Positions 17,899 to 18,517 of a stretch of 64,000 nucleotides of DNA are shown here, piece by piece (positions within the stretch are counted from its first letter, which is position 1; each line of letters opens with the position of its first letter). Under the pieces are notes generated by a model, which did not search any database, was not told the DNA's origin, and saw nothing but the letters and a program-made list of their open reading frames with translations. A program made the translations under genes and the position numbers. Source of the stretch: Escherichia coli (GTDB taxonomy: Bacteria; Pseudomonadota; Gammaproteobacteria; Enterobacterales; Enterobacteriaceae); the NCBI RefSeq assembly GCF_003790525.1, contig NZ_CP033635.1. One strand, written 5' to 3'.

Positions 17899-18517
17899 AA
17901 TGCTACGTATCCTTGAAATAAATATCCTCTGGCAGCGCCGGAGACGTGAATGTGGTCACCGCAAAGGAGCCACAGGACGTCATTTGCGCTGATATAACTA
18001 CTCATCGTTGACTTTTTCCCTGGTCAGAAATGCCGTGTCGGGTCTGGTACATGCTGTATTACGGCCCAGGTAGCTCTGACGTATTAAAGAAAATACGAGA
18101 GCGAACGACCCGGAAATAATCGTTATTAAGCAAAGGAATAACTATAAGAAATCGCTCATGCATCCGGTGCTACAGGCGGATGAAACGCCTATTGTGTGGG
18201 CTACGTCAGTGCGGCAGGTTGCGTGGGGGAATATGTTCAGGCGATGTCAGGCAGGGGCCCCTGATGGTTGACGGGGATACCGGTAATGCGGGGCTGGTTT
18301 TTCTTCACCTGTTGCAGTCGGAAGAAACCCTTACGCTGACTTTCTTGAGCCGGTGTTTTGAGTTCATTAGCCAGAGCCTGCAATGGTTTGTCATCCATAA
18401 TTTAACTTTCTTCTGATGTTGGAATGAACATATCAAAATCAGGAAATGACAAGTTTATTACAGGCTCAGGCAGCGGTCAGTAAAGCATCGCATCCGGCGA
18501 TAGATGCTGCATTAAAT

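Follow-up and report, generated by a model that had tools for sequence, protein, structure and literature searches.

A short open reading frame of basic composition lies between cvrA and a gene for a leucine-rich repeat (LRR) protein in the 64-kb stretch of Escherichia coli DNA analysed here (the window), and the question it raises is whether it is a small gene at all. The first-pass annotation had described it as an unannotated frame that could be a small partner protein of the LRR gene, a leader peptide or simply a chance ORF. We find that it is very probably the decayed 5' end of an IS1414-family transposase gene, and not a conserved small gene, an LRR partner or a leader peptide. Homology, architecture, breakage of the frame across the population and near-neutral substitution point in this direction.

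The frame itself is as first described. Both the sequence and the ORF list place it on the minus strand, from an ATG at 18398 to a TGA at 18239-18237, and it encodes 53 amino acids (MDDKPLQALANELKTPAQESQRKGFFRLQQVKKNQPRITGIPVNHQGPLPDIA) with a net charge of about +3. Its stop is 338 nt from the ATG of the LRR gene, which is read from the same strand and had been placed about 340 bp away, and cvrA lies on the other side. The length of the ORF is not above chance, as an ORF of at least 53 aa was present in 89% of 2000 dinucleotide-preserving shuffles of 17899-18517, and in 68% when an ATG start was required; the native region contains, besides, a longer ORF of 78 aa on the plus strand. "Unannotated" does not apply to public data, since exactly this ORF is recorded by RefSeq/PGAP as the hypothetical protein WP_000342121.1 in E. 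coli SMS-3-5 and TUM1586. Both are 100% identical to the window at the ORF locus, and the wider interval 16300-18600 is 100% identical to SMS-3-5 and many further E. coli chromosomes. A literature search on the two RefSeq accessions found no mention. Features of the region are collected in Table 1.

Table 1. Features in and around the cvrA-LRR spacer of the window, with nucleotide identity between the window and five other lineages where compared.
Feature	Coordinates	Strand	Basis	Identity to other lineages
LRR gene, 478 aa, YopM/SlrP/SspH/IpaH-type leucine-rich repeat domain	16462-17898	-	Pfam LRR_4	91-96%
276 nt directly upstream of the LRR gene	17899-18174	-		97.5-99.6%
Antisense 78-aa ORF overlapping the 53-aa ORF	18180-18416	+	ORF list	
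53-aa ORF, a chimera of transposase codons 1-13, collapsed junction, codons ~84-103, 12 unrelated codons and TGA	18237-18398	-		
ORF tail IPVNHQGPLPDIA and stop, no IS homology; the part most affected by indels elsewhere	18237-18276	-		
Second transposase block, codons 84-103 (...QLVKKNQTRITG...)	18277-18335	-	blastn, 76%	
Codon 27, CGA in the window and TGA in most genomes with the region	18318-18320	-		
Collapsed junction	18336-18360	-	blastn block coordinates	
IS1414-family left end: terminal inverted repeat starting GAGCCTGTAAT at 18467, 5' UTR with ribosome-binding region, codons 1-13	18361-18467	-		
IS remnant as a whole				94-97%, plus indels
YmgM-like ORF, 66 aa, antisense to the cvrA 3' end	18446-18646	+	95% to K-12 YmgM residues 5-66	
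50-nt flank after the cvrA stop	18468-18517	-		88-92%, about the neutral rate
Hairpin AGCATC (18508-18503)/GATGCT (18489-18484) followed by TTT, just past the cvrA stop	18484-18508	-		
cvrA, K+/H+ antiporter	18518-20254	-	Pfam Na_H_Exchanger, TrkA_C, CorC_HlyC	97.5-98%, almost all differences synonymous

A sensitive DNA search with the cvrA-proximal 418 nt found matches to IS1414-type transposase genes of the IS256 family around the start of the ORF. IS1414 is given as an IS256-family insertion sequence of E. coli by McVeigh et al. (2000), as cited in PMC12585946. The reference used here was the intact IS1414 of an ETEC plasmid (locus L004), whose transposase CDS (2074-3282) encodes 402 aa. 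Inverted repeats GAGCCTGT... at 2002 and 3315 of this locus bound an element of 1314 bp overall, and because these repeats define the element, the homology in the window starts at a true IS terminus. The window reads GAGCCTGTAATAAACTTGTCATTTCC from 18467 onward and aligns there to the IS1414 left inverted repeat GAGCCTGTACATAGATTTGTGTAATTGCC. Two blocks collinear with IS1414 were returned by blastn; the first (18467/18468 to 18361, L004 2001-2111, 83% identity, E = 3e-27) covers the left end, the 5' UTR and codons 1-13, and the second (18335 to 18277, L004 2323-2381) covers the later stretch of transposase codons. BLASTP of the 53 residues against the 402-aa transposase also gave two collinear segments, residues 1-25 and 77-103, with E values of 1e-5 and 5e-7 (17/30 identities in the 5e-7 segment), which overlap on ELKTP/ELRTP. 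Between the two nucleotide blocks, 25 nt stand in place of the 211 nt of intact IS1414, a net loss of 186 nt (62 codons) that keeps the frame. The sequence GAACT(G/C), encoding Glu-Leu, occurs at both edges of this junction and corresponds to IS1414 codons 12-13 and 77-78.

What remains is only a small part of the element. No right-end IS homology was found by blastn anywhere in the 64-kb window, so the object is a fragment and not an element. A further IS1414 piece or an astA/EAST1 segment was likewise not found in the window, and neither tblastn nor blastn detected IS homology beyond 18277, in the ORF tail. An intact DDE transposase is absent, codons 1-13 and about 84-103 alone being left. 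Scans of the 53 residues against Pfam and NCBIfam matched no family, which is expected because the IS256 profile starts at transposase residue 43; the intact IS1414 protein scores 4e-127 against the transposase family profile (Transposase_mut / transpos_IS256). In a plasmid search, no IS closer than IS1414 was found above about 86% identity. The remnant, 14-24% diverged from extant IS1414, is thus an old or divergent member of the IS1414 family, and the ORF owes its basic character to the transposase N-terminus. Decay of this kind is common, as E. coli copies of IS1414 are mostly decayed by deletion and point mutation (PMC12585946).

These observations suggest a history for the ORF. An IS1414-type element would have inserted 50 bp past the end of cvrA, its transposase gene facing the LRR gene. 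Most of the element would then have been lost, leaving the left inverted repeat, the 5' UTR, the start codon and codons 1-13 and about 84-103, with 62 codons removed at the junction. From there the frame would run 12 codons into unrelated DNA before reaching the TGA. That it stays open for 53 codons in the lineage of the window would be happenstance, the frame having been cut elsewhere mostly by nonsense mutation, frameshift or a larger deletion. Several points run counter to this history: the 186-nt loss is in frame, for which the chance is one in three; the ATG and codons 1-26 are undamaged in each of the 13 sequences sampled; YmgM of K-12 shows that a small protein made from an IS1414 transposase start can be detected; and PGAP has annotated the ORF as a gene in the lineage of the window.

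The population data bear directly on whether the frame is kept. The region is carried by about 831 of 5426 complete E. coli genomes, and 834 genomes carry at least 80% of a 2.3-kb LRR segment. We aligned the cvrA-LRR spacer of 13 sequences, representing 10 haplotypes, and counted the alleles of codon 27 by allele-specific 47-mer megablast with the seed forced to span this codon; the allele frequencies reported here rest on these 47-mer searches and the 13 sampled sequences. The 53-aa frame is open in two of the ten haplotypes, the window type and the APEC37/L018 type. Codon 27 is TGA in 479 genomes and CGA in 223 genomes of the window type and 170 of the APEC37 type.

The frame is broken in several ways. 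The change of CGA to TGA at codon 27 (R27) shortens the ORF to 26 aa in P649, 118UI, F374, FDAARGOS_1282, L011 and L016. On top of this stop, a 1-nt deletion at codon 46 is present in 118UI, F374 and L016, and FDAARGOS_1282 carries a 158-nt deletion with which the 3' half of the ORF is gone. In Shigella flexneri (L017), CAA to TAA at codon 29 (Q29) leaves 28 aa. A +1 insertion past nt 105 gives an ORF of 50 aa with a new C-terminus in L012 and L013, and deletions of 1 and 8 nt give 50 aa in L014 and L015 and are masked by the TAA in L017, which shares them. About 130 of the 831 genomes match query positions 1-98 only, which is consistent with the 158-nt deletion allele, and only 162 genomes have at least 99% identity to the ORF of the window. 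Products called as genes from this ATG are between 29 and 86 aa long, and their C-termini are unrelated. Altogether, two independent nonsense mutations and four indel events fall in the ORF. Stops and frameshifts in other genomes that carry the LRR gene are what the first-pass annotation itself had named as speaking against its proposal, and they are found here many times over.

Substitutions within the ORF are near-neutral. Point variants comprise 15 nonsynonymous and 1 nonsense change (16 together) against 7 synonymous ones; with 123 nonsynonymous and 36 synonymous sites (N/S 3.42), this gives a ratio of about 0.67, a value that a sample of this size cannot tell apart from neutrality. The codon-substitution analysis that had been proposed as a check therefore gives no indication of purifying selection and, as the frame is also not kept, the ORF is not a conserved protein-coding small gene. 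The chance-ORF reading of the first-pass annotation comes closest, in that the ORF is non-functional; it missed that the sequence has a definite origin in the collapsed 5' end of an IS1414-family transposase gene. In all 13 sampled sequences, the ATG and the 26 codons that it opens are intact, and so is the ribosome-binding region inherited from the IS. In the window allele, the Shine-Dalgarno-like GAAGG reads GAAAG. Because this start region is intact throughout and the K-12 protein YmgM starts at the equivalent ATG (see below), the stub may be translated at a low level into a lineage-specific, functionless peptide of 26-53 aa.

Regional conservation was assessed by comparing the window with five other lineages (Table 1), with cvrA as the yardstick for neutral divergence. 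For cvrA, dS is 0.08-0.10 and dN is 0.0015 in one comparison and 0 in the other four; the protein is identical in four lineages and 99.7% identical in the fifth. The IS remnant diverges by 3-6%, roughly half the cvrA synonymous rate, and so it may be under some constraint, for instance as a promoter or 5' region. One possibility that follows, and that is compatible with the decayed-transposase reading, is that the frame is irrelevant and the IS remnant has been kept since an outward-facing transposase promoter or 5' region aids transcription of the LRR gene. The remnant does point toward this gene, and transcription starting in the IS end could read toward it. None of the LRR-carrying sequences sampled lacks the first ~190 nt of the remnant, which even the 158-nt deletion allele keeps. 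Such co-occurrence is, however, explained by linkage alone, no sigma-70-like site was found on the minus strand, and the better conserved 276 nt beside the LRR gene are a more obvious promoter region. We consider retention for this purpose unlikely.

The same comparison indicates where the LRR promoter is best sought. The first-pass annotation reasonably expected it within the 620-bp region that holds the ORF; the best candidate is the LRR-proximal part of this region, 17899-18174, and not the part around the ORF. Neither the LRR coding sequence nor the remainder of the spacer comes near this segment in conservation, which makes the segment the better candidate for the promoter and 5' UTR of the LRR gene, and judged by conservation it is the likeliest predicted site of both. 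A promoter and terminator scan found neither a sigma-70 consensus nor a terminator on the minus strand, and an Rfam search of 17700-18700 at E values up to 1 returned only a meaningless lncRNA match (E 0.89). The strong conservation of the segment is thus accounted for neither by a promoter consensus or an RNA family nor by its predicted fold (see below).

Some structural variation was also seen in the spacer. A 29-nt segment (CGCGTTTCAG..CTGTAGT) is missing at 18189/18190 in the window and in L017 and is present in the other sampled alleles that cover the site; because it resembles the following GGCGTTTCATCCGCCTGTAG, an imperfect tandem copy seems to have been gained or lost here. L012 and L013 have a 19-nt insertion further downstream. 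At the cvrA end, the hairpin just past the cvrA stop holds a REP-like GCCGGATGCG motif in its loop and could possibly serve as the cvrA terminator; the IS insertion point lies 17 nt past it and 50 bp downstream of cvrA.

The LRR gene, in turn, is of an effector-like type. A phmmer search against PDB matched its product to YopM (6e-34) and SlrP (1e-27), and the NCBIfam matches were to the repeat regions of SlrP and SspH2 only; the ligase (NEL) region that such effectors have was not represented among the matches. In a protein search, the family was found only in E. coli and Shigella, the next match having 35% identity. The LRR proteins share 74-97% amino acid identity and have 437-486 aa among products covering the whole query. 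Gene-wide dN/dS is 0.57-0.98 between lineages, the loci considered besides the window being L005, L007, L008, L012 and L014. Beside a near-unchanged CvrA, such fast evolution is compatible with diversifying selection on a protein that interacts with the host, or else with relaxed constraint. Beyond the LRR gene lie dadX and dadA, on the plus strand. When a collection of genome contigs was searched with the LRR protein, one locus was found, a 2-kb contig of a "Collinsella sp." MAG (L011, JAIJJM010000586.1), which is 92% identical to the cvrA-LRR spacer of the window including the IS remnant and is evidently, from this similarity, misbinned E. coli DNA.

Could the ORF encode a genuine small basic protein working with the YopM-like LRR protein, such as a chaperone or partner of it? 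The ORF is oriented like this effector-like gene and lies 338 nt upstream of it, PGAP annotates it in the lineage of the window, and two haplotypes with LRR proteins up to about 22% apart both keep the frame open. Most LRR-carrying genomes, however, have a broken frame, whereas an LRR ORF of full or nearly full length was called in 12 of the 13 sampled sequences. Type III secretion chaperones are typically about 120-170 aa long, acidic and co-conserved with their effector, and a basic ORF of 53 aa is unlike them. With near-neutral substitutions, a sequence derived from a transposase and no family match in addition, we regard the partner role raised by the first-pass annotation as highly improbable.

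The other role suggested there, a leader peptide or upstream ORF that controls the LRR gene by attenuation or translational coupling, fares slightly worse, and we give it hardly any credence. The ORF is short and lies upstream on the same strand, and its start and first 26 codons occur in all sampled sequences. Stops and frameshifts are found in many LRR-carrying genomes, however, and the position of the stop, 338 nt from the LRR ATG in the window, shifts with the allele (26, 28, 50 or 53 codons); in the 158-nt deletion allele the 3' half of the ORF is missing. There is also no terminator-like hairpin on the minus strand between the ORF and the LRR gene, the RNA of this spacer (17899-18236) folds no better than its shuffles (z -1.37, not significant), and no leader or riboswitch was found in Rfam.

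Equally remote is the idea that the overlapping antisense ORF is the real gene: PGAP has called plus-strand products of 95 aa or 50 aa in APEC37, P649, 118UI and F374, but the length of this frame is 78, 95 or 50 aa, or the frame is absent, with the same indels and the 29-nt indel, it has no Pfam match, and it lies antisense to transposase-derived DNA. PGAP switches strand by lineage here, calling either the 53-aa ORF or an antisense ORF of 95 or 50 aa (L005 2603-2890, L007 2302-2589, L008 2302-2454), and neither frame is conserved.

The reading of the ORF as the relic of a transposase gene is also in keeping with the same locus in E. coli K-12, which has no LRR gene and whose record marks an "IS1414 (partial)" and ymgM (b4740) between dadX and cvrA. 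We compared the K-12 locus (L003, NC_000913.3 1240188-1240463) with window positions 16283-16535 and 18369-18467. The K-12 IS1414 fragment has 102 bp, is inverted relative to the remnant of the window and is 93% identical to IS1414 and 85% identical to the remnant. The DNA adjoining its terminus has 96% identity to window 16535-16283, that is, to the last 74 nt of the LRR gene and the LRR-dadX spacer. Because these last 74 nt of the LRR gene are kept, the K-12 arrangement, which occurs in roughly 84% of genomes, is best read as a deletion derivative. The LRR-less state of most E. coli would then be a deletion and not the ancestral state, apparently with a second, younger IS1414 copy involved. 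A simple inversion between the short repeats GAGCCTG(T/C)AA was considered and rejected as the whole story, as the two fragments, at 85% identity, are less alike than their flanks, at 95-96%, and the K-12 fragment lies directly against the truncated 3' end of the LRR gene. Judged from these alignments, two separate insertions and a deletion fit better.

Other lineages show further changes at this locus. In E. coli O157:H7 N8B7-2 (L006 2658-3871), an IS3-family element sits in the same spacer and replaces the LRR gene. In N8B7-2 and APEC37 (L005 764-2434), cvrA is flagged as a pseudogene without its C-terminus; the 3' end of APEC37 cvrA reads as in the window despite this flag.

YmgM (67 aa, MDDKQLQA...) starts exactly at the transposase ATG of the K-12 fragment and runs antisense into cvrA. 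It has been detected by chromosomal SPA tagging and immunoblot (PMC6001520, Table 1), and therefore a stranded IS1414 start region can be translated. The 53-aa ORF matches YmgM at residues 1-10 only, with 8/10 identities, and homology does not extend along the protein. The true YmgM homolog of the window is the plus-strand ORF at 18446-18646 and not the 53-aa ORF. This homolog has a different start (MTSL...), its first four codons lying in the reverse complement of the IS terminus, and PGAP lists it as a partial pseudogene.

The main relevance of these findings is for annotation. WP_000342121.1, its many length variants and the antisense "hypothetical proteins" are best regarded as transposase debris, and it would be a mistake to list them among small-protein genes or to pair them with the effector-like LRR gene. 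The kind of object, a decayed IS relic, is already known; the start of YmgM in a separate IS1414 fragment and the deletion state of K-12 help to read the history of the locus and do not change general understanding. It is a doubtful but broader idea that IS1414 debris at the dadX-cvrA locus supplies ready-made start modules (promoter, ribosome-binding site and ATG) which give rise to lineage-specific translated micro-proteins. If this were true, YmgM in K-12-type strains and the 26-53-aa peptide in LRR-carrying strains would both come from such modules, and where the module is oriented as in LRR-carrying strains, transcription from it might run on into a YopM-like effector gene that evolves fast. 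On a small scale, the locus would then illustrate how in nature genes are born, and promoters captured, from transposon remnants.

The ORF can be compared with several known systems. Attenuator leader peptides share with it only a short upstream ORF on the same strand; the ORF of the window lacks a terminator or antiterminator, lies 338 nt off and has a variable stop position. Like the genes of type III chaperones and other small partners, which sit beside effector genes, it is a small ORF with such a neighbor, here the YopM/SlrP-like LRR gene, but it is too short for a chaperone, basic, transposase-derived and not conserved with the LRR gene. As for YmgM of K-12, both are small ORFs that begin at an IS1414 transposase ATG in the same intergenic locus and share MDDK-LQA, while YmgM runs antisense into cvrA and the ORF of the window runs the opposite way through transposase-derived DNA. 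IS1414 itself is the nearest relative. About 190 of its 1314 bp are left in the remnant, without the DDE domain, the right end or astA/EAST1, and in these the left inverted repeat, the 5' UTR, the start codon and two parts of the transposase reading frame can still be recognized as homologous, at 76-83% nucleotide identity.
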